DNA of 58,563 nt. It comes from an uncultured Clostridia bacterium. GTDB lineage: Bacteria > Bacillota > Clostridia > Christensenellales > UBA1242. The stretch spans positions 1-58,563 of the forward strand of contig CALWJU010000010.1 of assembly GCA_944381105.1 (NCBI GenBank), read 5' to 3'. Under the pieces are notes generated by a model, which worked only from the letters and a program-made list of their open reading frames with translations, searched no databases and had not been told where the DNA came from. The position numbers and the translations under genes are program-made. Every line of letters starts with the position of its first letter. Position 1 is the first letter of the stretch. Positions 27,401 to 56,852 of this stretch are shown one piece after another.

Positions 27401-27778
27401 GTGTTACAAAATGACACTTTTCGCAACATTTATAAAACAATTTCGTCATTTTATTTTGATATTTTTTAGGTTTGTAATATACTTGTTATGAGATTAGACA
27501 AATCTCGCTTTTGTAATATATAAATTTCGATTAAAATTTGGCTTATATTTACATGCAATAATTTATGAAAATATCAGAACATTAAGCACAATCCATAAGT
27601 GTTTTGTGTTTGACTTGCCTATTAAACCTAACCTATTATATTTTATAGAGTAATTGGAGAATTTTTAAATTGCAAAAGTATGTATTAGAAAGTTAAAAAT
27701 TTATTCTGAGAATAAAATAATTGTCAAAAGTAAATTTAATCTAAAAAAACATCATATATTAAAAAATAGGAGTTTATT

Positions 27779-29889: not shown

Positions 29890-29906
29890 ATTGTACATAT
29901 ATTGAA

Positions 29907-30020
29907 TATGAAATCAAATTATTTAAATTTAAATTGATTATGATAACAAATTATTTAAATTTAAATTGATTATGATAACAAATTATTTAACTTTAAATTG
30001 ATTATGAAATCAAATTATTT
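29907..30020. repeat. 32-bp tandem repeat, about 3.5 copies
   Basis: TATGA(A/T)A(T/A)CAAATTATTTAA(A/C)TTTAAATTGAT starting at 29907, 29939, 29971 and (partial) 30003. Confidence 0.9.
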
Positions 30021-39823: not shown

Positions 39824-40002
39824 AACCCCTCCTATCTTAAATTATTATAATGCCAAAAAAGACTGAAAAATATCATAAATCTCCTATCTACTCAATTTCA
39901 AGCAACTTTACTCTCGGTCAAATGTTACTATGTTTGCCAAAAAGTCAAAACAATCATTGCCAAAAATGTAAAAATATTATCAAAGCAAACTGAATACAAA
40001 TT

Positions 40003-40794
40003 TTACACATGCTTTTTTATGTTACGCTTGATGTAGCCTACAAGTCCTCGATATTTGTATGTGCAATCAAATATCTTCTTTGAGCCATTATGAATATTTT
40101 CGCTCAGCAGTGTGAATGCCCTAGCACTCTCAATTGACTGCACCCTAAGTCCTAACGAGTTTGATGCCCCTATTGCGTCATCCTCTGGTATTACGCCAAG
40201 TAGTGGCAAATTTAAAGCCCTGACTATGTTCTCAACAGTCATCATCTCGCCGTTTAAGAGCAAATCTCCTCGAACACGATTGATTACAAGTCCTTTATAG
40301 TCTATGTTATAATCATTTAAAAGACCTATCACTTTATCAGCGTCTCTAATTGATGAGAGATGAGGTGTTACTACCACAATAGCCTCATTGGCAGGCAAAA
40401 CTGCACGCCTAAACCCGTCATCGACGCCAGCAGGACAATCGATTAAAATATAGTCAAAACTGCTATCAAGAATGTCAATCACATTTTTTATATGCTCACC
40501 TAAGATATTTATTTTGTTGTAGGCGTGTGATGAGGGCAAGACGTAAAGAGATGATATGTTTTTATCTTGAACGAGTGCCTGTCGTGGTCTGCACCTTCCC
40601 ATTATGACATCTGTAATGTCGAAGATAATTCTATCCTCAATATTCATAACGACATCGAGATTGTTAAGACCTATATCAACGTCAAACAGTACCACACGAA
40701 AGCCTAGTTTTGCAAGATTGATTCCAAGGTTTGCACACACAGTAGTCTTACCTACACCACCCTTACCACTTGTCAAAACAATTTTTCTCGCCAT
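40003..40794 (-). CDS. minD: Septum site-determining ATPase MinD
   Basis: SGKGGVGKTT, DIGLNNLD, DCPAG, RDAD, C-terminal amphipathic helix. Confidence 0.95.
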   Translation of the reverse strand: MARKIVLTSGKGGVGKTTVCANLGINLAKLGFRVVLFDVDIGLNNLDVVMNIEDRIIFDITDVIMGRCRPRQALVQDKNISSLYVLPSSHAYNKINILGEHIKNVIDILDSSFDYILIDCPAGVDDGFRRAVLPANEAIVVVTPHLSSIRDADKVIGLLNDYNIDYKGLVINRVRGDLLLNGEMMTVENIVRALNLPLLGVIPEDDAIGASNSLGLRVQSIESARAFTLLSENIHNGSKKIFDCTYKYRGLVGYIKRNIKKHV

Positions 40795-41122
40795 AAACTC
40801 CCCCTTTAAAATAATCTTCTCAAAAAGTCAAGACGCCAGGTCTTTATCTTAAAAGAATAAAAATCGTTTAGTCCTAGTTACTATTTTAACAAATCTAGTT
40901 ATTTTCAAAAAGAGAAGAATTGTCGCATTTTCCCTATATTTGTCTTTTTTGGACAGATTTCCAAGCCATGTTTAAACTTTCGTAATTTCTCATATATAAT
41001 CCAAGAATACAAATCTTTTTAAAATTTTGAGAACTATACTCTCATATTTTTTGATTAAGAAAAATATTTATAAAAAAATCAACCTAATAAAAAATGGTTG
41101 ATTTAATTATTATTTTACATTA

Positions 41123-41248
41123 TCGGATGTCGAACTTGCTTGCGAGAGTGAGACTGATAGGTTTTCTTGCTGTATGATGACACAATTTATTGTATCTATG
41201 TGCTACCAAAACTTAAAATTTAACTTGTTTAATTTCTATCATCTCATG
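41123..41248 (+). repeat. Leader plus degenerate subfamily-B element B1
   Basis: TCGGA..AACTTGCTTG..GTGAGACTGATAGGTTTT leader, then ACACAAT-tt-ATTGT..CAAAACTTAAAATTTAACTTGTTTAA shared with B2. Confidence 0.8.
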
Positions 41249-41268
41249 GTTTTATTGTTAGAAACCAA

Positions 41269-41446
41269 GTCAAGCAAGGCGAGGTGGTATTTAAGTGAGA
41301 CTGATAAGGTTTTCTTGCTATGTGATGAGTGTGCAAAGCACACAAATTCGCAAGAATTTAATAAAATTTTATTGCTATAAAATTTTATTATCACATAGCA
41401 AGAAGACCTATCAGTTGCTATCAAATATGGCTTCGCCTTGCTTGAC
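41269..41446 (+). repeat. Four-way-junction element A4 with long outer inverted arms (MITE-like)
   Basis: GTCAAGCAAGGCGA...ACTGATAAGGTTTTCTTGCTATGTGAT [core] ATCACATAGCAAGAAGACCTATCAGT...TCGCCTTGCTTGAC. Confidence 0.9.
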
Positions 41447-41483
41447 GACAACTATCGAAAATATATCAACTTTGTATTATGTT

Positions 41484-42488
41484 TTATGTGTTTTCATAGA
41501 TTTTTTCCAGCAAGTCTTGGTCATCAAGGAGTTTACCAGCACCTAGTATAGTTACGTTCTCTCCGTCCTCAACAATCTTAAATGGATAACGGAAATTGCG
41601 TTTAAGATAGTTTTCAAGTCCTGATATCTTGCTCATTCCACCTACAAACTGAACACCATTATTGATTATATCGGTGGTTATTTCAGGAGAAAGTGAGGTT
41701 ATTGTAACGTCTATACTACGTATAATTTCGTCAAAAAATGGTTCTAACACTGTCAAAAGGTCGCTTGATGAGATTATGTACGAACGAGGAACTTTACTCT
41801 CAATATCCACGCCTGTTACTTCCATATTGAGTGTATCGTTTGGATAGAGACTGCCGACTTCATTTTTAAGTTTTTCACTCGCCCCTATTCCTATCACAAG
41901 TCCATGATTGTAGGCTATTTGATTGGAGATTGCCACGTCAACGGCACGTCCGCCCAAGCCGATTGTAGCACCTTTGATGATTGAGTTCATATTGATAACG
42001 GCAATATCAGTATTCGCACCGCCAATATTTACAATCATATTTGCCTTTGTAGAACTGACGTTCTTGCCTATTCCTATCATGGAGCAGAAAACTGCTGGAA
42101 TAAGCACCACCTCTTTAAAACCTATTTCGTACATGAGGGAGAGAAGTGTTTCTTTATCTTTGTCTGCAAGTCCGCAATTTACAAGAACTAAGGCAGAGTC
42201 TCTTTTCTTTTTAAAGTCCAATTTTTCTAGGAAATAATTCATCAAAGCCTTTGTATATTCATAGTTTTTTATCTGTCCATTAGATATAGGGCTGAAAACC
42301 TCGACACTGTCGCTTGTCTTTCCCATCATCTTTTTTGCCTCCTCACCTAATCCAACGATTTGGTAACCCTGAGGTGTAGGTTCGGCAGAGACCAAAGTCG
42401 GCTCGCAAAGTGCATAGCCATTATCTCTTACATATATTCTTGTGAACGAGCCACCTATTTCAATGGCGTATTTATATTTCCCTAACAT
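41484..42488 (-). CDS. Divergent MreB/Mbl-family actin homologue
   Basis: EPT, GEEAKKMMGKT, PISNGQI, NIGGANTDIAVI, SEKLK, GGMS; AGGAGG RBS before ATG at 42488. Confidence 0.85.
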   Translation of the reverse strand: MLGKYKYAIEIGGSFTRIYVRDNGYALCEPTLVSAEPTPQGYQIVGLGEEAKKMMGKTSDSVEVFSPISNGQIKNYEYTKALMNYFLEKLDFKKKRDSALVLVNCGLADKDKETLLSLMYEIGFKEVVLIPAVFCSMIGIGKNVSSTKANMIVNIGGANTDIAVINMNSIIKGATIGLGGRAVDVAISNQIAYNHGLVIGIGASEKLKNEVGSLYPNDTLNMEVTGVDIESKVPRSYIISSSDLLTVLEPFFDEIIRSIDVTITSLSPEITTDIINNGVQFVGGMSKISGLENYLKRNFRYPFKIVEDGENVTILGAGKLLDDQDLLEKIYENT

Positions 42489-42747
42489 TCTCCCCTCCTT
42501 GCCTAATTTTTGCATTATTGTAGCACCTATTTTTGACTAATTTCTCTAAAAATTTTATTTACATCATTCTTATTATTTAAATTTATATCTTGCTTTTTTG
42601 AATTTATTTTTGACTTAATTTTTATCTTGTTTGAATTGTAGGTACATTTTGACTTAAACTAACATCTGTTTTTCCATCCTTATTTAAGTCAAAAATTGTC
42701 GTAGAACTAAATTATAGTGCCTTATATAAACTCTGGCTAACATTATT

Positions 42748-42831
42748 CAAACTGTGATGGCACAATTTATTGTGCTTTTGCGTAAGCAAAACTTAAAATT
42801 TAACTTGTTTAAATTTTAAAATCACAGTTTG
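42748..42831 (+). repeat. Four-way-junction element B2
   Basis: CAAACTGTGAT / GCACAAT-tt-ATTGTGC / TTTTGC-gtaa-GCAAAA / TTAAAATTTA..TAAATTTTAA / ATCACAGTTTG. Confidence 0.95.
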
Positions 42832-42859
42832 TAAGAGATAATTTTTAAAACCATCTGAT

Positions 42860-44233
42860 TTAAAACTCAATTGTTACAGACGAATTCACATAACCACTTA
42901 GGAAATTTATCTCTAAACTATCACCCTCTTGCACCTTTAAAAGAATATAGGCAAGGTCATTTCTATTTTCAATAATTGACAACTGCCCATTAAGAGAAAC
43001 GCTGTTAATAACAGTATCTTTTACAAGTAAACTCAAATCACTATACAAATTTTCGTTATCAAGCACATATAGACCACTACCTTTATAAGAAAAGGCTCGT
43101 GAATATGAGGTTGCATTATAATTTTCGCCGTCAAAAGTATAGTACTGATATTGTCCGATTGCATTGAGAGCCTCTTCGAACTCCTCTCTTAGATAACTCG
43201 CATATGCTATCTCATTGCTATCTATTGCCTTTATACTTAACTCATCAAGTGTATAGATAGCAAAGTTTGTTGAGTTTTCATTATTTGAAATTACCCTATC
43301 AAGAACTTGCATAATAGGATAGATAGGCACAACACCATTCATTTGATTTCCGTTTGTACTTGTATAAGAGGTGCTTGCAGTGGCTAGCCCTATCAAGTTG
43401 CCCTCCTTATCAAACACTCCGCCACCCGAATTACCTGGCGAAATGCCTAGGCTGACATCAATAACATCCTCATATACATTGTTTAATGTTGCGACAGGAT
43501 AGTATTCCACCCCCTCTTCGAGTAGATTTGCGTCGGTTAAATATTTAAGTTCTCCACCATCTTCACTATCAAAATAGTAGTAATATGAGTTTGTTGTTGC
43601 TATTGTCAAATCATTATCACTGGCGACATTGCCGAAAGTTACTCTATTAAGGTACTGCAAACTAAGTGGAGTCCCTATTGTGAATATCTCTTCAATGTCG
43701 AGTTTATCCTCCCCCTCAATTGAGCGGTCAGACATTCTCACATAGTTCATTGAAAGTCCTTCGCAATAGAGCAAAGCAACATCAAAATCTTGACTTGCCC
43801 ATAGAACCTCACAAGAGAATTGTCTTTCATCTTCTGTAATTACATTGACAGAAACGTTACTATAAGACTCATCATATATAAAGTCAATAACATGGTAGTT
43901 TGTAGCGATATAGCATCCACCATTTACCTGTCCCTCTTCTCCGCCAGCAACATAGGTATATCCATTTGAGGCAACAACTACTCCACTGCCGAGGCTTGAA
44001 TAACTTACCATTTCCTCGCTATTGACGCCATTTACACGGACAGCAACTGCGACGTTGTCTCTATATAATTGAGATATATCCCATATGGACATATCATCTG
44101 TAATCCTATCATTTATACAATAGGAGTTTGAGTAAGTCCTATTGCTAGGCAAAATAACCCCTGTTACTAACAAAGACACTAGTAACACAAACACAAGAGT
44201 AGAAAATACCGATATATACACTTTTTTATTCAA
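42860..44233 (-). CDS. Membrane-anchored trypsin-like (HtrA/S1C-type) serine protease
   Basis: GSG, TNYHV, DVALL, GNSGGG catalytic triad; N-terminal TM; degenerate PDZ-like tail; TTG start. Confidence 0.85.
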   Translation of the reverse strand: MNKKVYISVFSTLVFVLLVSLLVTGVILPSNRTYSNSYCINDRITDDMSIWDISQLYRDNVAVAVRVNGVNSEEMVSYSSLGSGVVVASNGYTYVAGGEEGQVNGGCYIATNYHVIDFIYDESYSNVSVNVITEDERQFSCEVLWASQDFDVALLYCEGLSMNYVRMSDRSIEGEDKLDIEEIFTIGTPLSLQYLNRVTFGNVASDNDLTIATTNSYYYYFDSEDGGELKYLTDANLLEEGVEYYPVATLNNVYEDVIDVSLGISPGNSGGGVFDKEGNLIGLATASTSYTSTNGNQMNGVVPIYPIMQVLDRVISNNENSTNFAIYTLDELSIKAIDSNEIAYASYLREEFEEALNAIGQYQYYTFDGENYNATSYSRAFSYKGSGLYVLDNENLYSDLSLLVKDTVINSVSLNGQLSIIENRNDLAYILLKVQEGDSLEINFLSGYVNSSVTIEF

Positions 44234-44347
44234 AATTTTGCCTTCTTTTTAATATTTTATCTTTTATGTCTTTATTGCATTTTCGTTTTGTCAAGGTTGT
44301 TATGATTTCTAAATTTGCTGTCATTGTTTAAAATTTTTGACTTTTTA

Positions 44348-45832
44348 CTAAATTATCTGTAAACTCTTTTTATAGACCTTTTTATAATCATGAGCAACTT
44401 TCATACCCTCAATTATCTCAAATGAGGCATCCTTTTCGGCTACCGTTTTCATGATGATAGAGTCGCCTAAAATATCGCATACAATATCTTGTATAATAGG
44501 TTTTCTTGATGCGTTAAGTGCAACTGCAAGTTTAACAATTATTCCAAGTTTTCTCACTGCTTCAAGGTCCTCTTCTGTCAAAATATCCTTGTACTTTATC
44601 CAGTCATTGAGCGAAAAGTCATCAAGATTTTGACAAATACAAATAAATCCAGCAATCAATAGTTCTCGGTGCGACACACCTACAATATCTGAGTATACGA
44701 TTTTATCAAAACCATATTTTGCATAGTTTTCACTATTTATGCACTTTCCGCAGTCAAACATATATGAGGCAATACGCAGAGGTTTAACGTAGAACCTTGG
44801 CAGTTTGTGCATTACCTTCAATTGTTTAAATAATATTGTCGCCATATTGTATACTTGTGGATTGATTGAAAATTCGTCGTTATTGAACTCTAAATAACTT
44901 TCAAGTGAGTTTGTAAGCAAATCATTAAATTTCTCTTGACTTGCACTCAATACATTGACCTGCAACAATCCTCCTCTTAGTGAGGCTGTTGACACTGCAA
45001 GTTCTTTTAACCCTAGTTCCTCAAATATAGCCTTTATGATAGCAAAACCTGCTGTTATTTTTTCAGCGTCATCATAGTCAATGCCCTTTATCTTTCTAAT
45101 TTTGTCAAGTTCGAGTCCCTCAACAAATTTGAAAGTACTATCCATCGCCTCTTTCGTCAAGATGTAGTTATTGTCGATATTGAGAGAGTACTTTTGTATC
45201 TTCTTCGCAATTCTTCCCATGGAGATAAAGGCATCACCCATGCCGACAATTTTTAAATCTTCTTCAAGGTTTGTTAAAAAGCCCTCTTTTTTGATGGTCT
45301 TTCTTATCTCTTTAACTACGCTATCAAGACCTTTTCCATTGACATCTAATGTAAAAGTTCCCACATTGTAAACAAGGCTACCCAGAATTGCCCGTCTATT
45401 GTACTTTACAATATAGGTCTTATATGAACCCACGTATACAAACATTCCCTTGGCACTATCAATGCTGTTTACCACAGAGTTAAAGAGATATTTTATATAG
45501 TCCTCATCACTTACAACAACAAAGTTTAGTCCTGTATTGTTGTAAATCTCGTCCAAAAATCCCCTATAATTTCTTGCTTTATAGATAACGCTTGAACATG
45601 CCGATATAATTTTGCTAACACCATGGTCCTCTATCATCTGCCTATACACTTTTAAAAATTCAATCAGTTGATTTTTGGTGGCAGGAGATAAAAGTTCATT
45701 CTTTGCAAGTTCATCCCCCAAAGGATAACTTTGATTTTTAACAAGTGCTATCATACTTTTTCCATTGCTAACCTTATATATTGTAAGTTTTAAGGTTTTC
45801 TCATTAAGTTCAATTATTGCTATCTTTTCCAT
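44348..45832 (-). CDS. Ppx/GppA-family protein with degenerate catalytic motifs
   Basis: Ppx-like layout (ARNY..EIYNNTG, KIKGI, SLRGG, HRELL); start 45832 or 45838. Confidence 0.75.
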   Translation of the reverse strand: MEKIAIIELNEKTLKLTIYKVSNGKSMIALVKNQSYPLGDELAKNELLSPATKNQLIEFLKVYRQMIEDHGVSKIISACSSVIYKARNYRGFLDEIYNNTGLNFVVVSDEDYIKYLFNSVVNSIDSAKGMFVYVGSYKTYIVKYNRRAILGSLVYNVGTFTLDVNGKGLDSVVKEIRKTIKKEGFLTNLEEDLKIVGMGDAFISMGRIAKKIQKYSLNIDNNYILTKEAMDSTFKFVEGLELDKIRKIKGIDYDDAEKITAGFAIIKAIFEELGLKELAVSTASLRGGLLQVNVLSASQEKFNDLLTNSLESYLEFNNDEFSINPQVYNMATILFKQLKVMHKLPRFYVKPLRIASYMFDCGKCINSENYAKYGFDKIVYSDIVGVSHRELLIAGFICICQNLDDFSLNDWIKYKDILTEEDLEAVRKLGIIVKLAVALNASRKPIIQDIVCDILGDSIIMKTVAEKDASFEIIEGMKVAHDYKKVYKKSLQII

Positions 45833-46007
45833 TATCACTCCTACTTAAATCTATTGCTTCAACTGGACAACTTGCCTGACAAGAACCACATCTGATACAT
45901 TTTGTCTTGTCTATCTTTGCCTGTCCATTTTCATCAAAACTTATAGCACCAACAGGACAAATAGCCACGCAAGTCCCACATCCTATACATTTTGTTTTGT
46001 CTACCAT
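45810..46007 (-). CDS. 2[4Fe-4S] ferredoxin
   Basis: CIGCGTCVAICP and CIRCGSCQASCP; GGAGG RBS before ATG at 46007. Confidence 0.92.
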   Translation of the reverse strand: MVDKTKCIGCGTCVAICPVGAISFDENGQAKIDKTKCIRCGSCQASCPVEAIDLSRSDNGKDSNN

Positions 46008-46059
46008 CTTTTGTTCCTCCATTACACCTAATTTTAGCATATTTTTCGACGTTTGTAAA

Positions 46060-46428
46060 CTATTTTTTTATTACTTTTATAAGTTCGATAATAGAAAGAA
46101 GGGATAAAAACACTCCATAGATAGTTCGAAGCACCCCAGCCTGCAAAATTCCAGCAAGAAAAGAGCCAAACACTGAAAAAACAACACCGCTTAAAATGAT
46201 ATAGATTATTCCCCTTGTATTAATGTAACCATTCTTGTAATGGATGATAAGAGCAAAGAGAGACATGACAAGAAAGGAGACAAGATTTATCCCCTGACTG
46301 AGTTTTTGGTCAAAGCCTAAAAATATGGTGAGCAATGGTATTAGCACAGTTCCGCCACCCATACCTAGTCCGCCAAATATACCTGCTAGCAAACCGCAAA
46401 CTATGTAAAGAAAAATTGTTAAAGCCAT
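46060..46428 (-). CDS. Half-size TauE/SafE (TSUP) membrane protein
   Basis: GGLGMGGGTVLIP, QGINL. Confidence 0.85.
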   Translation of the reverse strand: MALTIFLYIVCGLLAGIFGGLGMGGGTVLIPLLTIFLGFDQKLSQGINLVSFLVMSLFALIIHYKNGYINTRGIIYIILSGVVFSVFGSFLAGILQAGVLRTIYGVFLSLLSIIELIKVIKK

Positions 46429-46476
46429 ATCTCCTCCATTTAATTTTTATTTATCTAAAAGTTAAAAGTTTTATTT

Positions 46477-46650
46477 TTTTCGACATTTACGTGATATTTT
46501 CGACGTTTGCATTTTTTGAATTTAATTTTCGACGTTTATTTGATTTTTTCGACATTTACAAGAGATTTTCGTCATTTATATGTTTTTTTCGACAATTGCA
46601 AGAGATTTTCGACATTTATATGTTTTTTTCGACAATTGCAAGAGATTATC
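46477..46650. repeat. Array of eight TTTTCG(A/T)C motifs, mostly phased at 20 bp
   Basis: Motif starts at 46477, 46497, 46526, 46546, 46566, 46586, 46606, 46626; a 40-bp higher-order unit occurs twice. Confidence 0.9.
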
Positions 46651-46682
46651 ATCCTTTTAAAAATAAAATCCTATTTTTTTTG

Positions 46683-46764
46683 GCTATGTGATGCGTGCGT
46701 AAAACGCACAAATTCGCAAGAATTTATAAAATTTTACCAAAGTAAAATTTTAGCATCACATAGC
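46683..46764 (+). repeat. Four-way-junction element A5
   Basis: GCTATGTGATGC / GTGCGT-aaa-ACGCAC / AAATTC-gcaa-GAATTT / TAAAATTTTAC-caaa-GTAAAATTTTA / GCATCACATAGC. Confidence 0.95.
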
Positions 46765-46869
46765 GTTTTAATAATCACAACATTTTAAGATAATTTAACG
46801 TTTACGACATTATTTTTAAGTTTTTTTAATGTTTTTTCTGCGTTTTCACCTATTTTCATATAAATTTTT

Positions 46870-47403
46870 TCAAATTATCATCTTTATACCACCAGCAAGC
46901 ATGATAAGAGCAAAGATAATTCTGACCGCTTTGGGAGGTAAAAATTTTAATGCAAATGCTCCTATCACTCCGCCAACCACTACGCCTATTCCCACCGTCA
47001 AGAGAGGAAGAGAGTCAACAAAACCATTTATTACATAAATTGAGGCGGATATTAGAGATAGCGGAAATATAACTGCAATAGCGGTTGCATGCGAGGTTTT
47101 AGCGTCAAGCGATAACGATTTTTGGAGTAATGGCACACATATCATTCCACCGCCACCACCAAAAAATCCATTCAAAAAACCTATTAAACTACCACACAGC
47201 AAGAGGACAAACTTATTCAACTTTTTTGTCTCTTTTTGACCTGTTTTGCTATCTTTTGTCGAAAAGTTATCCTTATCTCTTTGCTCTCCATTTTTCGACA
47301 TTCTTTGCAGACAAAACAAGGTCTTGCCTAACATAATTTTAGTCCTTTTTACACATTTTAGGTTTGTAAGGCGTTGCTTTATAATAATTCTCTTCTTTTT
47401 CAT
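46870..47403 (-). CDS. Half-size TauE/SafE (TSUP) membrane protein; true start probably further downstream
   Basis: NGFFGGGGGMICVP, HATAIAVIFP. Confidence 0.82.
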   Translation of the reverse strand: MKKKRIIIKQRLTNLKCVKRTKIMLGKTLFCLQRMSKNGEQRDKDNFSTKDSKTGQKETKKLNKFVLLLCGSLIGFLNGFFGGGGGMICVPLLQKSLSLDAKTSHATAIAVIFPLSLISASIYVINGFVDSLPLLTVGIGVVVGGVIGAFALKFLPPKAVRIIFALIMLAGGIKMII

Positions 47404-47509
47404 ACATTTATTATGAATAAATATGGTAAAAATATTTGATTAATCAAGATAAATGTTGTATAATATCTAGGTATTAAACTTACTTAATCTTATATTATAA
47501 AGGTGGATT

Positions 47510-50500
47510 ATGCTAAAAACTAGAAAAAGTAAATCAAATTTATTAAAATTATGTGTGGCGTTTCTTTTCCCATTCACCCTTTTTGGTGGGCTTATGACAA
47601 CTCAGTTTGCTCATGCTGACGGAGAGAACTATGCCTACTACTATCAAGAGAATGTCTCTGTAACCAACGGCGACTTTACCTCTGGCTCGGTGCTTTCATC
47701 TGGCGATAACCTTTCTGGCTGGACTGTTACTGATGAGACTTCTTCCTCTAATGCGACAGGCATGTTTGTCGATACAGGTACAGGCAGTAGTACAAGTGAT
47801 GATGAGTCAAATGCTACCTTCTCTGAAAATCAAGAGAGATATTTGCTAAACGAAAATCCTGGTGCTAACCTAGGCGACGATAGCAGAATTTTGATGATTA
47901 ACTCAAAGTCTAACTCAAATTCTACAAATGTTAGTGCATCAAAGGGATATTATTCAGACTCCATTTCTTTGGAGGCTAACTCATTCTATAAATTCACAAT
48001 TGCTGTAAGAACTATGACTAATGGCGATAGCAAACCTGTCAGTGCCTCTATTTATGTAGATGGTCTTACCGACAGTGAGGGCGAGGAAGTTAAGGCAGGA
48101 ATTGAGGACATTACCTCGCAGGTTTGGCATGAGTACTTTATCTACATTGCAACAGGTGCGTCTAGTCAAGAGGTCAACATTCAGTTATATCTCGGCGGTG
48201 ATGACGGAGTGGTAAGTTCTGGTGCAGTTTTCTTTGACAGCGTCAGCGGTGTTCGTCTATCTGAAAACGCTTTCTTTGAAGAGTGCTACTCATCTAACGC
48301 TGGCTATCAAGGTCAAGACAGGCTTATAGCAAGTGGAGAAGAAAGGTGCTTTGTTATAGACAGTTTAGTGGACAACTCCTCCCTTATCGACACCAGCGCA
48401 GGACAAAATTTCGACTTTGAATTTAAAGATGTAAATGACGATGCAAATTCACTAAATACTCTTGGCAACTACTGGTCTATTTTAGAGGCTCACGACGGAC
48501 ATGCTTACATTGAAAATATTCGTGATATGCAACCTACCTATTTTAAAAATACCTATGGTTATGAGTATGTCGGCGACGATTTAACCTATAACAACAAAAA
48601 CGCTATGATACTTACCACATTAGGCGAAAGCGGTTATGTTGGAGTGCAGTCGAGTGAATTTGAGATAAAAGCACACACCGTTTATAAGATTTCTTTCAAT
48701 ATCAAAGTGGCTGGAATAGAAAGCGGTTCTTTCTATTTCAAAGTTCAAGAAAATGATACCATTTACTCACTTTATAGCGACATTTTGACAGATGACGAAG
48801 AGGATACAACAAAGGACTACCTCGCTTTGCAAGACGGGCAGACAAGCAGTATCTCCTCTAACAGTGAAAACGCTCCTATGAATGACTATCAAACTGTTGA
48901 AATGTATGTTAAAGGACATTCACTCTATGACACTTCTGTAAATTTCCAGTTATGGCTTGGCGATAGCGAGACCTCGGCAAATGGTACTGTTGTAATTGAC
49001 AATATAACTGTTGAATATGCAAGTGATGAAGAGTTCTCTTCCGCTTCAAACTCGGTAGAATTTACTTCATTTAGTTCTGACCCTGCTACAATTCCAAACT
49101 CATATTTTAACTCCACTGAGGCTGATGGTCCTGGCTCTTATCCTATCTCTGCAACCGACTGGACAAGTGAGATAGAAAGTGAAGATTATAATACCTCTGG
49201 TGTCGTTTACCTTTATGACCTTGCTCACTACAATGAAAACTACTTAGGTAAATATGACTGGGCAGGAATTTATCCTGGACAGATACGAAATGATATAAAT
49301 GGTGTAGTTCTTCCTAACAATGTGTACATGATGTACAACTCGGTAAACTCATACCAGTCTCTTACCTCATCAACATACACCCTCGACAATGATTCCTACT
49401 ATAAGTTGTCATTTAACTACTACAATGAAAACAGAGGTTCACTTAACGCCTCTAAAATCAAGGTTGAGGTCGTTGACGAAAATGGTATTGTTTTGTTCTC
49501 GCAAGACAACATCTCCTCTCGTGATAATTGGAACACTATGAACATCTTCTTCCACACTGCCGAACTTGTTTCGCATAATATTCAAGTTGTAATCCATTTC
49601 GGAGAGGATGACCCAGACAAGAAAGTTGGCGGTATTGTATACCTCGACAATTTCGTGGTTGAAGAGTCTAATGAGACTGAATTTAATGCCTATACGTCTA
49701 TATATAAGGCTGACCTTACAAATTATTTCTTAAATCTCACAGAAAATGGAGAGGTTTCAAGTACTATTACTACAACATCTGCCTATGACTTTGCGGTTGA
49801 ACCTATCTACGACCTTGCTGGCGAAGAGGAGTTCGACTTCGCAAATGGTGGCATAATAAGTGGCAACAACAACCCTTATGGCAACGAGTTTGTAATTAAC
49901 GATTCCAACTATCTTGCCATTCAGACCTTCCTTGCATCTCGTGCAAGTTTGACCTCTGCCTACACTATTAGCATGGATGCTGACGGATACTACAAACTCA
50001 CCTTTGACCTTGCTACTATCTTCGGTGAAAGTGCCTTAAATGCTAGCACTGATGAGCATGACTGTCAGTATGGTGTTACAATCACAGTTGACGGATTTGA
50101 GCCTATCACTGAAATTGTTACAGGCGGAGATCTTAAATCATACACTATATACTTTAACGCTAGTGAAGCAGTTGCTCCTACAATATCCTTTACTTTGGTA
50201 AGTGATTGCCATGAGACTATCGGTACTGCCCTAATCACCCACCTTGATTTTAACTCTGTAACTGAGAGCGAGTACAACAACGCAGTCCTTTCTAGCAACT
50301 ATGGTTCTACCGTCTTTACCTCTGCTCAAAATGCAACTGAGAGCGACGAAGATACCGACACTGACGAGGATACCGACGAGGACACTAGCACCGATGATAC
50401 AACTGAGCCTGAGGCTACTTCTCCATGGCTACTTGTATCCTCTCTTATCTTTGCAGTTGCAATCATAATTGCTATAATCGGCTTTGCTCTTAGACATGTT

Positions 50501-50977
50501 AAGATTAAAAAGATTGAAAGAATTAGACAAGAAAGTTATGACAGAAAGTTATCGAAGAACCATGACGTCATACTAGTAGAGGCACAAAAACGAAGAGACG
50601 AAGAGGTTAGGCAGTTGCAAAATGCTAAGAAGATGTTTGAAGAAGATAAGGCTAGACTTGAAGAAGAACACAAAGCCTTTGTTCGAGAAAACAGACTTAA
50701 TAGCAAAGGAAAGATATCAAAGGAAATTGAAAAGTCCATCAAGAAATACAATAACGATATAATCAACCTTGATGAAAAGATTTCTATTATTTCTGAAAAG
50801 ATTGATACAGTTATGTCTGCCGACTATCTCTTAACTATTGAGCGAAGAATAGTTGCCGAAGAGGACAGCCAACTCAAAAAAGACAAAAGAGAGTACAAAA
50901 AAGAACTCAAAAGAATTAAAGAAATGGAAAAGAACTCTCGTAAGTCAGAACCTCAAAACAATGATGAGGAACAATAG
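47510..50977 (+). CDS. Large acidic surface protein: signal peptide, repeated carbohydrate-binding-like modules, TM, cytoplasmic coiled coil
   Basis: AHA cleavage site; repeated NGDF / YKxxF / LxLG / GxVxxD units; D/E/T linker; TM PWLLVSSLIFAVAIIIAIIGF; TTGATT-17-TATAAT promoter at 47436-47464. Confidence 0.82.
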   Translation: MLKTRKSKSNLLKLCVAFLFPFTLFGGLMTTQFAHADGENYAYYYQENVSVTNGDFTSGSVLSSGDNLSGWTVTDETSSSNATGMFVDTGTGSSTSDDESNATFSENQERYLLNENPGANLGDDSRILMINSKSNSNSTNVSASKGYYSDSISLEANSFYKFTIAVRTMTNGDSKPVSASIYVDGLTDSEGEEVKAGIEDITSQVWHEYFIYIATGASSQEVNIQLYLGGDDGVVSSGAVFFDSVSGVRLSENAFFEECYSSNAGYQGQDRLIASGEERCFVIDSLVDNSSLIDTSAGQNFDFEFKDVNDDANSLNTLGNYWSILEAHDGHAYIENIRDMQPTYFKNTYGYEYVGDDLTYNNKNAMILTTLGESGYVGVQSSEFEIKAHTVYKISFNIKVAGIESGSFYFKVQENDTIYSLYSDILTDDEEDTTKDYLALQDGQTSSISSNSENAPMNDYQTVEMYVKGHSLYDTSVNFQLWLGDSETSANGTVVIDNITVEYASDEEFSSASNSVEFTSFSSDPATIPNSYFNSTEADGPGSYPISATDWTSEIESEDYNTSGVVYLYDLAHYNENYLGKYDWAGIYPGQIRNDINGVVLPNNVYMMYNSVNSYQSLTSSTYTLDNDSYYKLSFNYYNENRGSLNASKIKVEVVDENGIVLFSQDNISSRDNWNTMNIFFHTAELVSHNIQVVIHFGEDDPDKKVGGIVYLDNFVVEESNETEFNAYTSIYKADLTNYFLNLTENGEVSSTITTTSAYDFAVEPIYDLAGEEEFDFANGGIISGNNNPYGNEFVINDSNYLAIQTFLASRASLTSAYTISMDADGYYKLTFDLATIFGESALNASTDEHDCQYGVTITVDGFEPITEIVTGGDLKSYTIYFNASEAVAPTISFTLVSDCHETIGTALITHLDFNSVTESEYNNAVLSSNYGSTVFTSAQNATESDEDTDTDEDTDEDTSTDDTTEPEATSPWLLVSSLIFAVAIIIAIIGFALRHVKIKKIERIRQESYDRKLSKNHDVILVEAQKRRDEEVRQLQNAKKMFEEDKARLEEEHKAFVRENRLNSKGKISKEIEKSIKKYNNDIINLDEKISIISEKIDTVMSADYLLTIERRIVAEEDSQLKKDKREYKKELKRIKEMEKNSRKSEPQNNDEEQ

Positions 50978-51056
50978 GGTTAAAAAATAGTCAAAAATAT
51001 TTAAACAGTATAACTCTTAAATAAAGCAGTGAAATATTGCTTAAATTGAACTCAAA

Positions 51057-51358
51057 CAAAAAACCGCCAGACTATATCTGGTGGTTTTTCATATAACGGG
51101 TAAAACCCTCCATTACAAGTAGCAAGAAAATCGTGCTAACTTACCTAGGCATAGGTTATTCACTCCTATTTTTTCATAATCTTTTACATTGTTCTATCTT
51201 TCATTATTTGTTGCTCCATTTTATTGATTGTGTAGTATTCTCCCTTCGCTCTCCTTATTCTTTGATTTTTTTCGTTCAACGGCAAACCTAAAACAATCAC
51301 CAGATTATCTGGTGGTTTTATTATACAACAAAAAACCGTCAGAATATCTGGCAGTTTT
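51057..51358. repeat. Three related terminator-like hairpins
   Basis: AAACCGCCAGA..TCTGGTGGTTT (51057-51089), ATCACCAGA..TCTGGTGGT (51295-51318), AAACCGTCAGA..TCTGGCAGTTT (51332-51358). Confidence 0.75.
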
Positions 51359-51613
51359 ATTAAACAAATAATAGATAATAAAAAATAATGACACTTTAAT
51401 AGTCATTATTTTTTATTATTATGAAGTTTTAAACCATTTATATGTTTCAAAGAAAAGTATAAAAATATATAATAGTTATTGAAAAACATTAAAGATTAAT
51501 AAGATTAATTATTTTTCAAAACATAATCTACGAGAGGCTCTATATATTTTTCATCCGTCCAATCACAATTTTTATCTTTCGCCTCCATTAAAGCCATACT
51601 ACCATAGTAGGTA

Positions 51614-52144
51614 TCAATCCTCGTCATCGTCGTCATAGTCATAGTCGTCATCGTCTATATCATCATCGTCGTCTATATCGTCGATATCGTCGTCATCATC
51701 ATTATCATCGTCATCGTCATCATCCGAAAAAACTTCATCATCAAAAGAGATATCCGAGTCATCCTCGTCAAATGATAAATCTTGCGTCAAATCATCGTCA
51801 TCGTCAAGCAATGAAGACTTTGTTATATCGTTGACAGAAGCCATTTCTCCTGTCTCGTCGTCTATTGTCATTATGTCGTCCTCATCCTCACGAACCATAT
51901 AGTCCTCCCAATCGGAGTTAAGTTCGCCGTCTTCATTCTGATGTTCTTTTAAACAACTTGAACACATAATCTCATCTGGTTGTATATAGTTGGTCTTGCA
52001 TATAGGGCAAAGTTCGAGGTCAATATCATCGACATAGTCCCGTCTTGCCTCCATTTCAGCCTTACAAACAGGGCAGAATTTATCTTTTTTTTGTATATAA
52101 TTTATCTCACATCTAGGACATCTTATATAAACAGGTTTTTTCAT
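51614..52144 (-). CDS. Double zinc-ribbon protein with a poly-Asp tail
   Basis: CPRC..NYI..CPVC and CPIC..NYI..CSSC, then an Asp-dominated C-terminus; AGGAG RBS. Confidence 0.85.
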   Translation of the reverse strand: MKKPVYIRCPRCEINYIQKKDKFCPVCKAEMEARRDYVDDIDLELCPICKTNYIQPDEIMCSSCLKEHQNEDGELNSDWEDYMVREDEDDIMTIDDETGEMASVNDITKSSLLDDDDDLTQDLSFDEDDSDISFDDEVFSDDDDDDDNDDDDDIDDIDDDDDIDDDDYDYDDDDED

Positions 52145-52239
52145 ATTTCACTCCTTAACATACATTTTTTAATGTCTAACACATTATACATATATATTAT
52201 AAAAAAGTCTAATGTTTTTCTTAATTTTTTATAATTTTT

Positions 52240-52878
52240 TTAAGATTTTTTTGTAACCCTTTCCTCTAAACTTAACTCTGCTTGGCTCTTTCTCAAATAT
52301 AACGGAACAAGTTGATTTTCTCCTATCTCAAAGCCACTATCTTTCATTTTTAAGGATAGCATTAGTAATTCCTCTGCGGTAGGGCTAACCTTCTTTTCAG
52401 CCACATCCTCCTCTTCAAGCCCTATCTTGACTAAACTTAGGCTATCAAGTTCCTTTTTTGTAATAACTTTTGCCTCTTCAATCGCCTTTCCTCTCTTGTC
52501 CCTTTTTTGTATGTAGACAAGACCGCTAAGTGCGTCTACAACAGTTAGAAAGTCGCCCTTTATAGTATGACTACGCAAATAACTATATGATATTAAATCA
52601 AAAGTGGTTATCGGTATTACCTTGCTTTCTTTACCAGCACAGAATCCTTTTACAAGTGCCATTCCTATCCTTATCCCTGTGAATGAGCCTGGTCCTACCA
52701 CCAGCGCATAGCGGTCATTTTTGTCAATACTACTGCCTATATTATCAAGCATTTTATCAATTTTATACAGTATATTTTCTGAATGTTTGCAGTTTGAGTC
52801 AAGCGTGGCAAAATCTCTCTTATTATTTATTTCAACCGCTATCAGTGCTTGTTTGCCAGATGACGATATCGCTATCAT
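52240..52878 (-). CDS. tsaB: tRNA threonylcarbamoyladenosine biosynthesis protein TsaB
   Basis: HSE, GPGSFTGIRIG, PLYLRKSQAE. Confidence 0.92.
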   Translation of the reverse strand: MIAISSSGKQALIAVEINNKRDFATLDSNCKHSENILYKIDKMLDNIGSSIDKNDRYALVVGPGSFTGIRIGMALVKGFCAGKESKVIPITTFDLISYSYLRSHTIKGDFLTVVDALSGLVYIQKRDKRGKAIEEAKVITKKELDSLSLVKIGLEEEDVAEKKVSPTAEELLMLSLKMKDSGFEIGENQLVPLYLRKSQAELSLEERVTKKS

Positions 52879-53060
52879 ATTGCTCCCCTTTATTCTTAAT
52901 AATTTTACTTTAACTTATATACTAAATATTTTTGAATATTCCTTTAAAATTTATTTTAAATATTTTTATTATAAATTGACCATATAAAGATATAAAAAAT
53001 TCTTTCATTAGGTTAAAATTTAATCATACTCAAAAAGAATTTAAATTTCTTATTTACCTT

Positions 53061-53501
53061 TTAAACCTCATTTCCTACAATAATTTTTCTACTGTCGCCG
53101 TCAAGTTTTTCTATTATTATCTCAATATGAGGGCATGTAATAAGACCTGACACATTCTCTGGCCACTCGACAAGCACAACTCCGTCAAGGTGTTTGAGGT
53201 CAAAATATTCATTAAAACCTAGTTCCTCAGCCTCTTCCTTTGAAGAAAGTCTATACATATCAAAGTGATAAATAGGCACTTTCCCGCCCTCATAAACGTT
53301 CATAATGGTAAAAGTTGGGCTTGTTACGAGAGCGTTACTCCCCATGCCTTTGACAAACCCCTTTACAAAGTGCGTTTTGCCTGCACCGAGGTCGCCAACA
53401 AGTGTAAATACCACCCCTTTGCCGACTGTCTTTGCAAGTTTTTCAGCCACTAGCATAGTTTCTTCTTCATTTTTTGTTATAACCGAAAATATCTCTTCCA
53501 T
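53061..53501 (-). CDS. tsaE: tRNA threonylcarbamoyladenosine biosynthesis ATPase TsaE
   Basis: GDLGAGKT, SPTF, HFDMYRL, VEW. Confidence 0.96.
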   Translation of the reverse strand: MEEIFSVITKNEEETMLVAEKLAKTVGKGVVFTLVGDLGAGKTHFVKGFVKGMGSNALVTSPTFTIMNVYEGGKVPIYHFDMYRLSSKEEAEELGFNEYFDLKHLDGVVLVEWPENVSGLITCPHIEIIIEKLDGDSRKIIVGNEV

Positions 53502-53641
53502 ATTTTTCTTATCCTTATACTGAAATTTATAATTTTATTTTCTAAGTTTATTAAGTTCAAATTTTTGTCCTTGTTAAACCTTTTTATGTAAATTAATTAT
53601 ACCGCTTTTTAAGATTATTTTTATATTGAGTTTTTTAAACT

Positions 53642-53724
53642 GGCATGCGATAGCACAATAAATTGTGCTTTTGCGTCAGCAAAACTTAAAATTTAAGCGT
53701 GCTTAAATTTTAATATCGCATGCC
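53642..53724 (+). repeat. Four-way-junction element B3
   Basis: GGCATGCGATA / GCACAAT-aa-ATTGTGC / TTTTGC-gtca-GCAAAA / TTAAAATTTAAGC-gt-GCTTAAATTTTAA / TATCGCATGCC. Confidence 0.95.
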
Positions 53725-53760
53725 GTCCTAATATCACTTATCTCTTACAACAATCTTATA

Positions 53761-54318
53761 TCACTCTTTTTTTATCCTTACAACCACCTTTATCTTTCTG
53801 ACATATTTGTGATAGACAAACAAACCAAGACATGCAAAGAAAATTCCAACTGCCATGCCAACAAGAGTGTCTGACAGATAATGCGCACCTAGCACCATAC
53901 GTGAAAAGGCTATTGCAAAAGGAAAGATTACGCAAAAAAGTCCGCCTAACACCTTAGTGCTATTATATTTCGTTGTAGTTAAGATATGATAAAATAGAAA
54001 TGTCGCAAAGAGTCCTCCGCATAGGCTATGTCCTGACGGCATACTATATCCGCTCTCCCCACCATAGTTTAATATAGTAGGGTCAGCCTCAAACGGTCTT
54101 TCTCGTCCAATTATTACCTTTAAGATTTGATTAATAATTGAAGCAATAGCAAAGGTTACAAGAAAAACATAACTGAGCCGTCTCTGTCTTATAAAGAATA
54201 CCACAAACAGAATGACAAAGCCGAGATAACTGCCAAACAGGGTTATAAATTGAAACAGAGCCACAAAATTTACACTAGCATTAGACTGCAAAAATTTTAT
54301 TATTTCCACTTCATTCAT
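53761..54318 (-). CDS. PAP2-family membrane phosphatase
   Basis: KxxxxRxRP, PSGH, SRMVLGAHYLSD; start 54318 or 54336. Confidence 0.92.
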   Translation of the reverse strand: MNEVEIIKFLQSNASVNFVALFQFITLFGSYLGFVILFVVFFIRQRRLSYVFLVTFAIASIINQILKVIIGRERPFEADPTILNYGGESGYSMPSGHSLCGGLFATFLFYHILTTTKYNSTKVLGGLFCVIFPFAIAFSRMVLGAHYLSDTLVGMAVGIFFACLGLFVYHKYVRKIKVVVRIKKE

Positions 54319-54424
54319 ACCCTTATATTGTAACATATTACGACAAAAAATACAACAGATTTTTAGTTGTCTGTTGTATAGTTTTGTTTTTAGTTAATTT
54401 TTATATTGACTTAAAGATTATGTT

Positions 54425-55006
54425 TTAATTTAACTTCACACTCACACTAAAACCGTCATCAATATCATAAAATGTGGTTGACATATTTTTGTCTTCTTTC
54501 AAGGTCTCTATAAACTGTCTTAAATGTTCCACCATTGAGCGATGTTTATGAGGAATTTTTCCCTCGCTCTTGACAAGTCCTAGCAAGTTCATATTGTCGC
54601 AGAATAGCACACCGTCCTTTTCTAAGAGATTTTTCAGAATTGGATAGTAATTTTTATACTGCCCTTTTGCTCCGTCTAAAAATATAAAATCATAGGTTTG
54701 CCCCTGACTTTCTAGTTCTTTAAGAACTTTAAGTGCGTCATCGACGTAGAGGGTTACTCGCCCTAAAAGGTTAAGCCTCCTAAAATTTTCTATCGCCTTA
54801 TTTGCACGAGTCTCGTCCTTTTCAATGGTTGTAAGGTGCCCGTCGCAACTTTTTAGTAGTAACGAACCTGAATAGCCTATCGCAGTCCCTATCTCCAAAA
54901 TCCTCTTTGCCTTTTTATCTCTACAAAATTCACAGAGTTTCTTTGCTGTCTCCTCTCGTACAATAGGTATATAGTTCTGCCTTGCCTCTTTTTTTATCTC
55001 TTCCAT
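54425..55006 (-). CDS. O-methyltransferase (YrrM/TrmR-like)
   Basis: LEIGTAIGYS, DFIFLDGAKGQY, DN. Confidence 0.88.
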   Translation of the reverse strand: MEEIKKEARQNYIPIVREETAKKLCEFCRDKKAKRILEIGTAIGYSGSLLLKSCDGHLTTIEKDETRANKAIENFRRLNLLGRVTLYVDDALKVLKELESQGQTYDFIFLDGAKGQYKNYYPILKNLLEKDGVLFCDNMNLLGLVKSEGKIPHKHRSMVEHLRQFIETLKEDKNMSTTFYDIDDGFSVSVKLN

Positions 55007-55018
55007 AACAGCCCTTAA

Positions 55019-56671
55019 TTAGTCAAGTGAGACAATTGTCAAAATCATAGGACGACGTTTTGTACGTCTAAATATAAAGTTTGACAGATTTCGACGAAGA
55101 GAGGCTCTTATCACTGATGGTTCAACGCCTCTAAGGTCAGATTCTTTTAGTGAGGCTATAATTGTGGCTTTGGCGTCTTGAACAAAACTTTCTTGCTCGT
55201 CAGCATACACCACTCCTCTTGTGATTATAAATGGATCGCTGGTAACCTCGCCTGCAACATTGTTGATATTTACGCAGACAACACAGATTCCGTCCTCAGC
55301 AAGTTGTTTTCTCTCCCTCAGTACATTGCTATCCATATCGCCTATTCCCATACCATCAACTAGACGCTGACCTGCCTTAACAAAACCTACCTCTTTCATT
55401 GAGTTTGCCCCTAGTTCAACCTGCATGCCTATGCTTGGCAATATTATATTGCGACTATCCATACCTAAGGTCATAGCAAGTTCCTTATGAGTTTTTAGGT
55501 GTCGATATTCGCCATGCACTGGCATGAAAAACTTAGGTTTAACAAGGCTGTGCATGAGTTTGAGTTCCTCTTGACATGCGTGCCCCGAGGTATGAACATC
55601 GGCAAGTTCGTCATAGATTACATCAGCACCAAGTTTATAGAGTGCGTTTATAACGTTGTACACATTCTTCTCGTTTCCAGGTATTGGAGAGGCAGAGAGG
55701 ATAACAAGGTCGTTTGGTCTTATCTTGACGCTCTTAAACTCACCCGCAGCCATACGAGTCAGTGCACTCATAGGCTCGCCCTGACTGCCTGTTGTCATGA
55801 TAAGCACCTCTTTATCGTCAAGTTTATCAACCTTTTCTATATCAACAATATTCTCTCTATTAAAGTGAAGTTCTCCAATCTTCATAGCAACTTCGCTGAC
55901 ATTTATCATGCTTCTGCCTGTAAAGGCTATCTTTCTATTATACCTCTCTGCAATATCCATAATCTGTTGCATTCTATGGATGTTTGAGGCAAACGTAGCA
56001 ACTATTATACGATTGCTAGCGTGATTTTTGATTATCTCGTCAAGAGTTCGGCCTACCGATTTCTCGCTCATAGAATAACCCTTTCGACAAACGTTTGTAC
56101 TTTCGCATAAAAGAAGATTTACCCCCTTTCTCCCTATCTCGCCAAGTCTTGAAATGTCGGTCATAACTCCGTCAATTGGCTCATAGTCAATCTTGAAATC
56201 GCCTGTATGCACAACCGTTCCTACTGGGGTGGTGATTGCAAGAGCGAGAGAGCCTGCTATTGAGTGGCTAACCTTAATAAATTCTATTGAAAACGAGCCG
56301 AGTTTAAGTACATTTCTAGGCTTTACTGATATAGCCTTATATTTAATCTTTGGATGCTCTTTCATCTTGTTTTCGACTAATGCAAGTGTAAGCCTTGTAC
56401 CATAGATTGGTACATTCAACTGTTGAAGCAAAAATGGTACTGCTCCTATATGGTCCTCATGACCATGAGTGAGAAGAAGTGCCTTAACTTTATTTTTGTT
56501 CTCTACAAGGTAGGTCATATCAGGTATAACTATATCTACACCTGGCAAATCGTCGTCTGGAAAAGTTAGTCCAGCATCTATAAGTATGATTTCGTCATTA
56601 TATTCAAGTGCGGTCATATTTTTTCCTATCTCGCCCACACCACCGAGAAAGGTAACTTTTAATTTGTTCAT
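55019..56671 (-). CDS. rnj: Ribonuclease J
   Basis: LGGVGEIGKN, THGHEDHIG, TGSQGEPM, HTSGH, PVHGE. Confidence 0.97.
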   Translation of the reverse strand: MNKLKVTFLGGVGEIGKNMTALEYNDEIILIDAGLTFPDDDLPGVDIVIPDMTYLVENKNKVKALLLTHGHEDHIGAVPFLLQQLNVPIYGTRLTLALVENKMKEHPKIKYKAISVKPRNVLKLGSFSIEFIKVSHSIAGSLALAITTPVGTVVHTGDFKIDYEPIDGVMTDISRLGEIGRKGVNLLLCESTNVCRKGYSMSEKSVGRTLDEIIKNHASNRIIVATFASNIHRMQQIMDIAERYNRKIAFTGRSMINVSEVAMKIGELHFNRENIVDIEKVDKLDDKEVLIMTTGSQGEPMSALTRMAAGEFKSVKIRPNDLVILSASPIPGNEKNVYNVINALYKLGADVIYDELADVHTSGHACQEELKLMHSLVKPKFFMPVHGEYRHLKTHKELAMTLGMDSRNIILPSIGMQVELGANSMKEVGFVKAGQRLVDGMGIGDMDSNVLRERKQLAEDGICVVCVNINNVAGEVTSDPFIITRGVVYADEQESFVQDAKATIIASLKESDLRGVEPSVIRASLRRNLSNFIFRRTKRRPMILTIVSLD

Positions 56672-56721
56672 TGTTTTCTCCTTTTAAATATTTTTTATTG
56701 TTAAAAATACAAAATATATCG

Positions 56722-56852
56722 ACTATGTGATGATTAAATTTTATTAACATAAAATTTTATTAAATTCTTGCGAATTTATGTGCTTTTAGCACACTCATCA
56801 CATAGTTTGTAAAACCATCAGTCTCACCCTTACAAGCAAGTTGGAATTCCGA
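56722..56852 (-). repeat. Four-way-junction element A6 (inverted orientation) plus shared leader
   Basis: Core 56722-56806; reverse complement reads TCGGA..AACTTGCTTG..GTGAGACTGATGGTTTT..ACTATGTGATGA GTGTGC..GCAC AAATTCGCAAGAATTT... Confidence 0.93.

Follow-up and report, generated by a model that had tools for sequence, protein, structure and literature searches.

The sequence between the genes for MreB and a ParA/MinD-type protein at positions 41119-41455 of the window (the whole stretch of DNA that was analysed, 58,563 nucleotides) is an old, partly decayed array in which an L1 leader joined to a B core is followed by a long leader joined to an A core and then by an inverted L2 leader. The array contains two old copies of a gene-less, strongly folded repeat of about 140 bases. 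The reading that we prefer, and hold with somewhat more confidence than doubt, is that the array represents a modular, strongly structured interspersed repeat of the bcr1 type, that its units spread in trans, and that the long-armed copy within it, A4, arose as a one-off.

The window is one entire contig of a 1.18-Mb genome (G000) with a G+C content of 33%, a completeness of 97.6% and 43 contigs; the public sequencing runs that contain the window are chicken-gut metagenomes. The array sits between the stop of the MreB gene (41484-42515, minus strand) and the ParA/MinD-type gene (40003-40794, minus strand). Gene order around it is conserved in the four nearest relatives, and the parA-mreB spacer, 691 nt in the window, measures 95-186 nt in 11 relatives and 265 and 406 nt in two more. 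A separate motif upstream of the ParA/MinD-type gene (40915-40960), GAGAAGAAWTGTCG-N-TTTCTTCCCTTT-N-TTGTCA, is conserved across the genus, in the corresponding spacer of 13 relatives (L010-L024), and is probably the promoter or operator of that gene.

The elements of the window are as follows, with scores from R1, a covariance model built from A cores alone:

41119-41262, plus strand: B1, a decayed unit of L1 leader and B core, recognised by leader-block matches and by a B core 80% identical to the reference copy; unit 5' end ATTATCGGATG at ~41119, leader at 41123-41165, B core at ~41173-41246.
41263-41319, plus strand: left arm of A4, a chimeric leader of the long type followed by the linker TTTTCTTGC, recognised by comparison with L2 and L3 copies and between the two arms.
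41320-41396, plus strand: A4 core, 92% to the A reference (R1 103 bits at 41307-41408), folding into a closing stem P1, P2 (GTGTGC/GCACAC), P3 (AAATTC-GCAA-GAATTT) and P4 (TAAAATTTTAT/ATAAAATTTTA).
41387-41455, minus strand: right arm of A4, a complete inverted leader of the L2 type (blastn match to L2 at 41410-41451, minus strand, 93%).
56713-56856, minus strand: A6, an intact unit of L1 leader and A core, the inverted partner of the B1 leader block (R1 99 bits at 56713-56816).
243-344, plus strand: A1, an A core without leader (R1 90.5 bits).
4168-4269, plus strand: A2, an A core without leader (R1 102.9 bits).
11409-11512, plus strand: A3, an A core without leader, with a 15-bp closing stem (R1 96.4 bits).
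46673-46773, plus strand: A5, an A core without leader, inside the 441-nt spacer between TauE half-genes (R1 99 bits).
42753-42826, plus strand: B2, a B core without leader, the reference copy for the B repeats.
53646-53720, plus strand: B3, a B core without leader, 90% to the B reference.
56884-57040, plus strand: B4, a B core whose first hairpin is broken by ~65 nt, 65% to the B reference.

The insertion of ~65 nt in the first hairpin of B4 is accompanied by a duplication of the 5' half of that hairpin (AGCACAATTTTTTGT ... AGCACAAAAAATTGTGC). Several other repetitive features were seen in the window. The half-size TauE genes that flank A5 overlap by 4 nt in the nearest relative and stand 441 nt apart here (46429-46869); besides the A5 core, the spacer holds at least seven motifs of the TGTCGAAAA type at 20-nt spacing (repeats at 46476-46657), a series that looks like an array of protein-binding sites, and a motif resembling this type also occurs at 27418-27451. 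Three 32-nt tandem repeats lie in an AT-rich spacer (29898-30020). A run of GAT/GAC-type 9-nt repeats at 51608-51751 probably encodes, on the minus strand, an acidic stretch of low complexity.

The original prediction described imperfect inverted arms of about 60 bp around A4, and indeed the segments 41269-41328 and 41387-41446 form arms around the A core that contain 47 Watson-Crick and 6 G-T pairs over ~59 nt per side in the minimum-energy fold of 41262-41455. The fold energy, -98 kcal/mol (z = -15.4), was equalled by none of 200 shuffles, and a repeat search found the outer 38 nt of the arms to be 76% complementary. A leader shared by B1, A4 and A6 had also been proposed. Its short motif, GTGAGACTGAT-N0-2-GGTTTT, occurs three times in the window (41148 and 41295 on the plus strand, 56811 on the minus strand), each copy immediately 5' of B1, A4 or A6, while 100 shuffles gave an expectation of none. 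The longer block said to be common to B1 and the inverted A6, TCGGA-N5-AACTTGCTTG-N4-RGTGAGACT, was found twice (41123-41155, plus; 56820-56852, minus), again with none expected. The B1 sequence (41119-41262) folds at -18.6 kcal/mol (z = +1.9), no better than shuffles, which identifies it as a decayed copy.

The anatomy of the intact repeat was derived from 12 arrays on other contigs and from an alignment of 39 A-type and 43 B-type units. The full-length form that recurs throughout the genome is a unit 137-150 nt long, which runs from its 5' end through a leader hairpin, a linker and a four-way-junction core to a tail. The 5' end is sharp across copies, with the boundary falling between (T)TATATT and ATCGGAAG, which bears out the suggestion that the leader holds the true end of the element. 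The linker, CTGATGG-TYWTACATAC, is conserved; the core consists of an 11-bp closing stem (ACTATGTGATG/CATCACATAGT) enclosing three hairpins; and the tail reads TAGTTTATAWT. The motif TTTATAWT both precedes and ends nearly every unit, and the canonical ends themselves (ATCGGAAG... and ...CACATAG) carry no terminal inverted repeats. Leaders come in three variants, namely L1 (31 nt), L2 (44 nt) and L3, which is L1-like with the extra small hairpin of L2, and cores come in two, A and B, which have the same architecture. Units are solitary or follow one another head to tail, in arrays that comprise up to four modules and have one junction in common, and six contigs of this genome terminate inside arrays. 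On contig C18 of this genome (C18:52370-52404; L121:871-905), the last 35 nt of an A core are fused directly to TATATTAT, so that a 5'-truncated copy heads an array. In another assembly (L095:4881-5900), tRNA genes are followed by repeated fragments of tRNA 3' parts and then by an array of three units.

A blastn census of this genome (E<1e-3) returned 54 cores, 33 leaders and 29 leader-core pairs, the last made up of 15 L1-B, 6 L1-A, 5 L2-B and 3 L2-A pairs and hence of all four combinations. In 75 stretches from other assemblies, L1 was joined to a B core 26 times and to an A core 22 times. The claim that A and B are modules of one larger unit, with the same leader attached to either core, is upheld by these pairings, and the two are homologous core variants: R1 detects B cores full-length at 31-66 bits. 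With this model, 57 matches were obtained in the genome at E<=0.01, at least two of which are opposite-strand echoes of A cores. Leaders almost never occur independently of cores. Four leaders were without a called core: the B1 leader (its core having decayed too far), A4's inverted arm, one that precedes a variant A core, and a single truly core-less leader among the 33. Leaderless cores have a mean identity of 93.8% over 74% of the core, compared with 96.6% over 98% for leader-bearing ones. The leaderless cores would be the older copies, and it is plausible that the short copies are trimmed derivatives, as had been proposed.

The further proposal that the 178-bp long-armed form is the parent of the short copies found no support. 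The left arm of A4 is a chimeric leader of the long type, with an L2-like 5' part (GTCAAGCAAGGCGA, common to L2) and an L1/L3-like 3' part (AGTGAGACTGATAAGG); it has AACCAAG...ATTTAAGTGAGACTGAT in common with L3. On the minus strand the right arm reads as a complete L2 leader, whose own unit 5' end lies at ~41455; this arm also provides the 3' half of the closing stem. The two arms are therefore different leader variants, only ~80% alike, and not recent copies of each other. By blastn, the right arm is the sole inverted leader among the 33 of this genome; the arm pattern occurs in one of 154 genus genomes, in the window itself; and arrays of mixed orientation were absent from the 75 stretches from other assemblies and from 17 metagenome stretches. 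In A4, a core has come to lie between one direct leader and one inverted leader; the copy is a singleton rearrangement and not a parent form. It may have arisen through a single recombination of two oppositely oriented units inside the palindromic closing stem, an event whose expected product matches A4 exactly.

Miniature inverted-repeat elements (MITEs) are defined by terminal inverted repeats and by target duplication through the DDE transposase of a related insertion sequence. Descent of the whole family from a longer autonomous element of this kind, with the 60-bp arms of A4 as ancestral terminal inverted repeats and the short copies trimmed from it, would fit the presence of the unit's terminal motif at the ends of both long arms and the greater divergence of leaderless cores. 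However, A4 is the only copy of its form, its arms are dissimilar variants and the canonical units have no such repeats. Moreover, neither a transposase nor an autonomous, ORF-bearing copy, for which a search had been suggested, was found in the genome, in the 75 and 17 other stretches, or in phages and plasmids. This derivation is largely refuted, and we regard it as barely credible.

A two-unit blastn query detected the family in 53 of the 154 genus genomes (34 of the 103 of high quality), leaving 101 without it. The exact L1 26-mer was present in 75 stretches, which belong to 29 assemblies by their accession prefixes and are labelled uncultured Clostridia or Firmicutes, and in no viral contig; the two-unit query had no blastn match in phage or plasmid records (72,556 plasmid records), and the structure model found nothing in 120 other genomes sampled across the order. 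A metagenome scan added 17 stretches with unchanged leader-to-core order and nothing new. The exact L2 25-mer was found in no stretch of the collection of genome contigs because an exact match was demanded; L2-like leaders exist in other genus genomes at 76-86% identity.

Insertion sites turn over between species. None of the seven elements between 40 and 58 kb of the window is present in the syntenic 12-20 kb of the four nearest relatives. A further locus is empty in this genome; in one species it holds a single unit that begins directly after an intact -35/-10 pair, and in a third, three oppositely oriented units lie nearby. Near-identical copies of the unit occupy many loci. Four species have retained an L1-A unit at one and the same site, with a sequence far more conserved than the diverged flanks, which speaks for function or homogenisation and not only for selfish spread. 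Within the window, contigs of three chicken-gut DNA runs aligned to 40000-58563 enter B1/A4 and A6, and no contig passes over an element. In cross-species spacer alignments at B2, B3 and A6/B4, divergence is too great to place the insertion points. One empty/filled comparison, at ~80% flank identity, is compatible with a duplication of ~8 bp, and since no filled and empty pair is close enough to fix the junction to the base, target duplication is inseparable from the ends of the element. In a different part of the genome, over 8 kb of contig C21 (C21:1525-9551), encoding Hsp20, GNAT, a BspA-type LRR protein and LeuRS, this genome is 95% identical to L040, compared with ~80% in other regions of that species, which suggests recent recombination between the two. 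As a vehicle of the repeat this stretch was ruled out, as it holds ordinary genes only.

Pairing in all helices of the unit is kept through compensatory changes. An alignment of 23 L1-A units drawn from many assemblies has 96.4% of its cells paired; sliding the partners lowers this to 37-47%. Seven pairs changed on both sides, a number reached by 1 of 500 shuffles, and both 25 cells changed on both sides and a covariation score of 0.125 (compared with 0.092) were reached by none of 500. In the leader stem AGYC/GRCU, 12 sequences have C-G where 10 have U-A, and the extra small hairpin of L2 and L3 covaries as GCGAC/GTCGC, ACAAC/GTTGT, GTGAC/GTCAC and GGC/GCC. When diverged leaderless copies were included (27 A cores), compensatory changes were seen in 9 of 29 pairs, mostly in the closing stem.

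The strand read from leader to core is favoured as the one that folds. Its energy is lower than that of its complement in A4 (-98 vs -81.8 kcal/mol), in an L2-A unit (-46.3 vs -38.7) and in an L1-B unit (-38.6 vs -28.8), that is, by 8-16 kcal/mol in three of three intact copies tested. Deviations from Watson-Crick pairing on this strand of the A units are of the G-U type in 30 cells and of the A-C type in 4 (11 vs 4 column pairs), and in the arms of A4 they number 6 vs 1. Of 27 cores in the alignment, 19 have a GNRA loop in P3, and in the basal leader stem AUCGG/CUGAU the G-U pair becomes A-U in ATCAG variants. Counter-examples exist: one ortholog has an A-C intermediate, and P3 of one copy pairs better on the other strand. 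The G-U excess and the GNRA loops of P3 are signs of a role at the RNA level that would be superfluous for a pure DNA parasite.

These signs, together with the compensatory changes in every helix and the unit kept in four species while its flanks decay, invite the view that the units are primarily functional structured RNA modules, such as stabilisers, terminators or small RNAs in untranslated message ends, that were multiplied because they are useful, their mobility being secondary. Their positions also lend themselves to this view. A convergent ORF ends 12-56 nt from the 3' end of the match in 13 of 41 arrays, the unit that follows the -35/-10 pair in one species would form the 5' end of a message, and L2 itself resembles a promoter (TTGACA-N16/18-CATACT/TACTAT, matching the consensus at 10 of 12 positions). 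In one metatranscriptome run, contigs with unit junctions were present, but at a depth too low to show expression, from a library that is unstranded and in which DNA carry-over is possible. Yet no Rfam family apart from tRNAs reaches its gathering threshold (the best sub-threshold match scored 25 bits against a threshold of 84), and no site resembling an intrinsic terminator was found within the units. Absence from 101 genus genomes, and from the same sites in sister species, likewise sits poorly with a useful module, as does the decay of B1 beyond folding. In 27 of the 36 arrays with clear GC skew, moreover, the better-folding strand is the C-rich one, opposite the G-rich strand that carries most genes, which would be odd for RNA genes. 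Overall, a primary function as RNA is possible but doubtful.

In the preferred reading, units would spread in trans through an enzyme encoded elsewhere, and candidates were sought in this 97.6%-complete genome. Searches for Y1 (PF01797), TnpB, IS110, rve and DDE_Tnp_1 returned no match there, while five tyrosine recombinases and one retron-type reverse transcriptase were found. The reverse transcriptase (338 aa) adjoins a tyrosine integrase at a contig end (C5:39851-42589 of G000; L129/L131). Of 60 other genus genomes, 2 also have it, with an identity of 88-90%; such identity in two distant members of the genus makes it likely that it is carried on a mobile island. It was rejected as the mobiliser, being missing from the carrier genomes G005, G009, G010 and G024.

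Mobilisation in trans as single strands, by an HUH/Y1 enzyme of the IS200/IS605 kind that would paste hairpin-bearing strands behind TTTATAWT without duplication, would explain both the direct arrays and the strand bias. Arrays are head-to-tail with one junction shared, the same motif precedes and terminates the unit, and the 27 of 36 arrays noted above are oriented alike with respect to GC skew. Of the 60 other genus genomes searched, 7 have a Y1 transposase; the repeat is present in 6 of these 7 compared with 13 of the 53 without Y1 (hypergeometric p ~0.003, kinship ignored). This genome, however, has 54 cores and no Y1 gene. The IS200-like copies of its relatives have GC-rich end hairpins unlike the units and no unit beside them, and the strand expected on the lagging-strand template is the one that folds worse. 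We consider this route unlikely.

The host itself supplies another candidate. A single Xer-type tyrosine recombinase, best matched by the XerS model (182 bits, below that model's cut-off of 267), is present as one copy in 39 of 41 genus genomes and could swap the units as cassettes at the junction motif. A four-module array stands 179 nt upstream of the Xer-type gene in this genome (contig C41:18631-20092 of G000; L130/L135), and a unit stands ~390 nt upstream of the ortholog in one other assembly (L113). Against this, the 260 nt upstream of the same gene in the nearest relative (G010) show no unit motifs by eye, nhmmer and an ungapped matrix revealed no clean conserved motif upstream of the gene, and on inspection the junction shows no two-armed dyad of the sort that makes up the 28-31-bp, dif-like flanking sites of Xer/dif modules (IMEX). 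Cassette exchange by this recombinase is very unlikely in our judgement.

It is also conceivable, if quite unlikely, that the family is one of self-propagating structured RNAs with no gene of their own. Here, the -10-like hexamer at the 5' edge (TATAAT/TATATT) would drive transcription of the leader-to-core strand and the RNA form would act: the hairpin and the four-way junction with its GNRA loops would guide or template insertion at TTTATAWT or recruit a host enzyme. If true, this would be a bacterial mobile element that works at the RNA level without a gene of its own.

Our preferred model remains that of a bcr1-type repeat spreading in trans through an enzyme that the unit does not encode. 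Units would insert in one orientation into AT-rich sites resembling TTTATAWT. Because each unit ends in its own target-like motif, new units would land behind old ones and build head-to-tail arrays that share one junction. Leaders and cores would be reshuffled by recombination in the shared linker and the closing stem. The acting molecule may be RNA or single-stranded DNA.

Genomes of ~1 Mb from uncultured gut Clostridia are usually thought to be streamlined. Nevertheless, one species in three of this genus harbours a gene-less element in dozens of copies. These interrupt assemblies and lie at the ends of genes and at promoters; the five helices of the element are kept by compensatory change, yet no enzyme is known for it. 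For bcr1 of Bacillus, the riddle has been the same since 2004. The present family, unrelated and more modular, is a second case and offers natural swaps among three leaders and two cores, which give a comparative handle on what spread requires and bear on whether such elements act as RNA or DNA. With the true ends and variants known, annotators can mask the unit and assemblers can bridge the contig breaks that it causes.

A full-text literature search returned no description of this repeat family, which is not proof that none exists. Among known kinds of bacterial repeat, the units resemble MITEs such as Correia/nemis and RUP in being small, gene-less, multi-copy and intergenic and in folding as RNA; they differ from them in that canonical units lack terminal inverted repeats and no related insertion sequence was found. 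REP sequences are 20-40 bp long, have GTAG/CGTC heads and accompany a RAYT gene. REP/BIME elements are described as short extragenic palindromes in mosaic clusters, often behind genes (PMC3733652). Unlike these, the units described here are 140 nt long, their arrays are direct and not alternating, and the genome has no Y1/RAYT gene. A different kind of modularity is seen in BOX elements, which are composed as boxA-boxB(n)-boxC. A review passage describes BOX of Streptococcus pneumoniae as modular, variable in sub-unit number, non-autonomous, predicted to fold and transcribed. Both families are non-autonomous repeats assembled from a few kinds of sub-unit and predicted to fold; here, however, each unit is complete, the modules are alternatives for a single position, and there is no sequence relation between the two.

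The closest described analogue is bcr1 of the Bacillus cereus group. In published accounts, bcr1 (group A) is ~155 bp long, is transcribed, has TTTAT direct repeats of 5 bp that are thought to be duplicated on insertion, occupies positions that are not conserved, moves by a mechanism given as unknown, and is predicted to adopt a cruciform-like fold kept by compensatory changes (PMC3184786, PMC6542083, PMC6199540). As portrayed there, the two families share a gene-less length of ~150 bp, tens of copies, a Firmicute host, a TTTAT-containing direct repeat at both ends, a distribution of sites that is not conserved among relatives, and a cruciform-like fold with compensatory changes. Three hallmarks of the type were found here, namely a gene-less, multi-copy form with a length inside the range of about 100-400 bp, a fold kept by compensation and non-conserved positions, the last with the one exception of the unit kept in four species. 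The present family differs from those accounts of bcr1 in its alternative leaders and cores, in a four-way junction in place of two stem-loops, in its frequent head-to-tail arrays and in its hosts, uncultured gut Clostridia with genomes of ~1 Mb; the likeness is one of description and not of consensus sequence. As the host belongs to a different class from the B. cereus group, to which bcr1-bcr3 are restricted, the repeat is at most an analogue of bcr1. It is a more modular one, built from interchangeable leaders and cores and with its true end in the leader.
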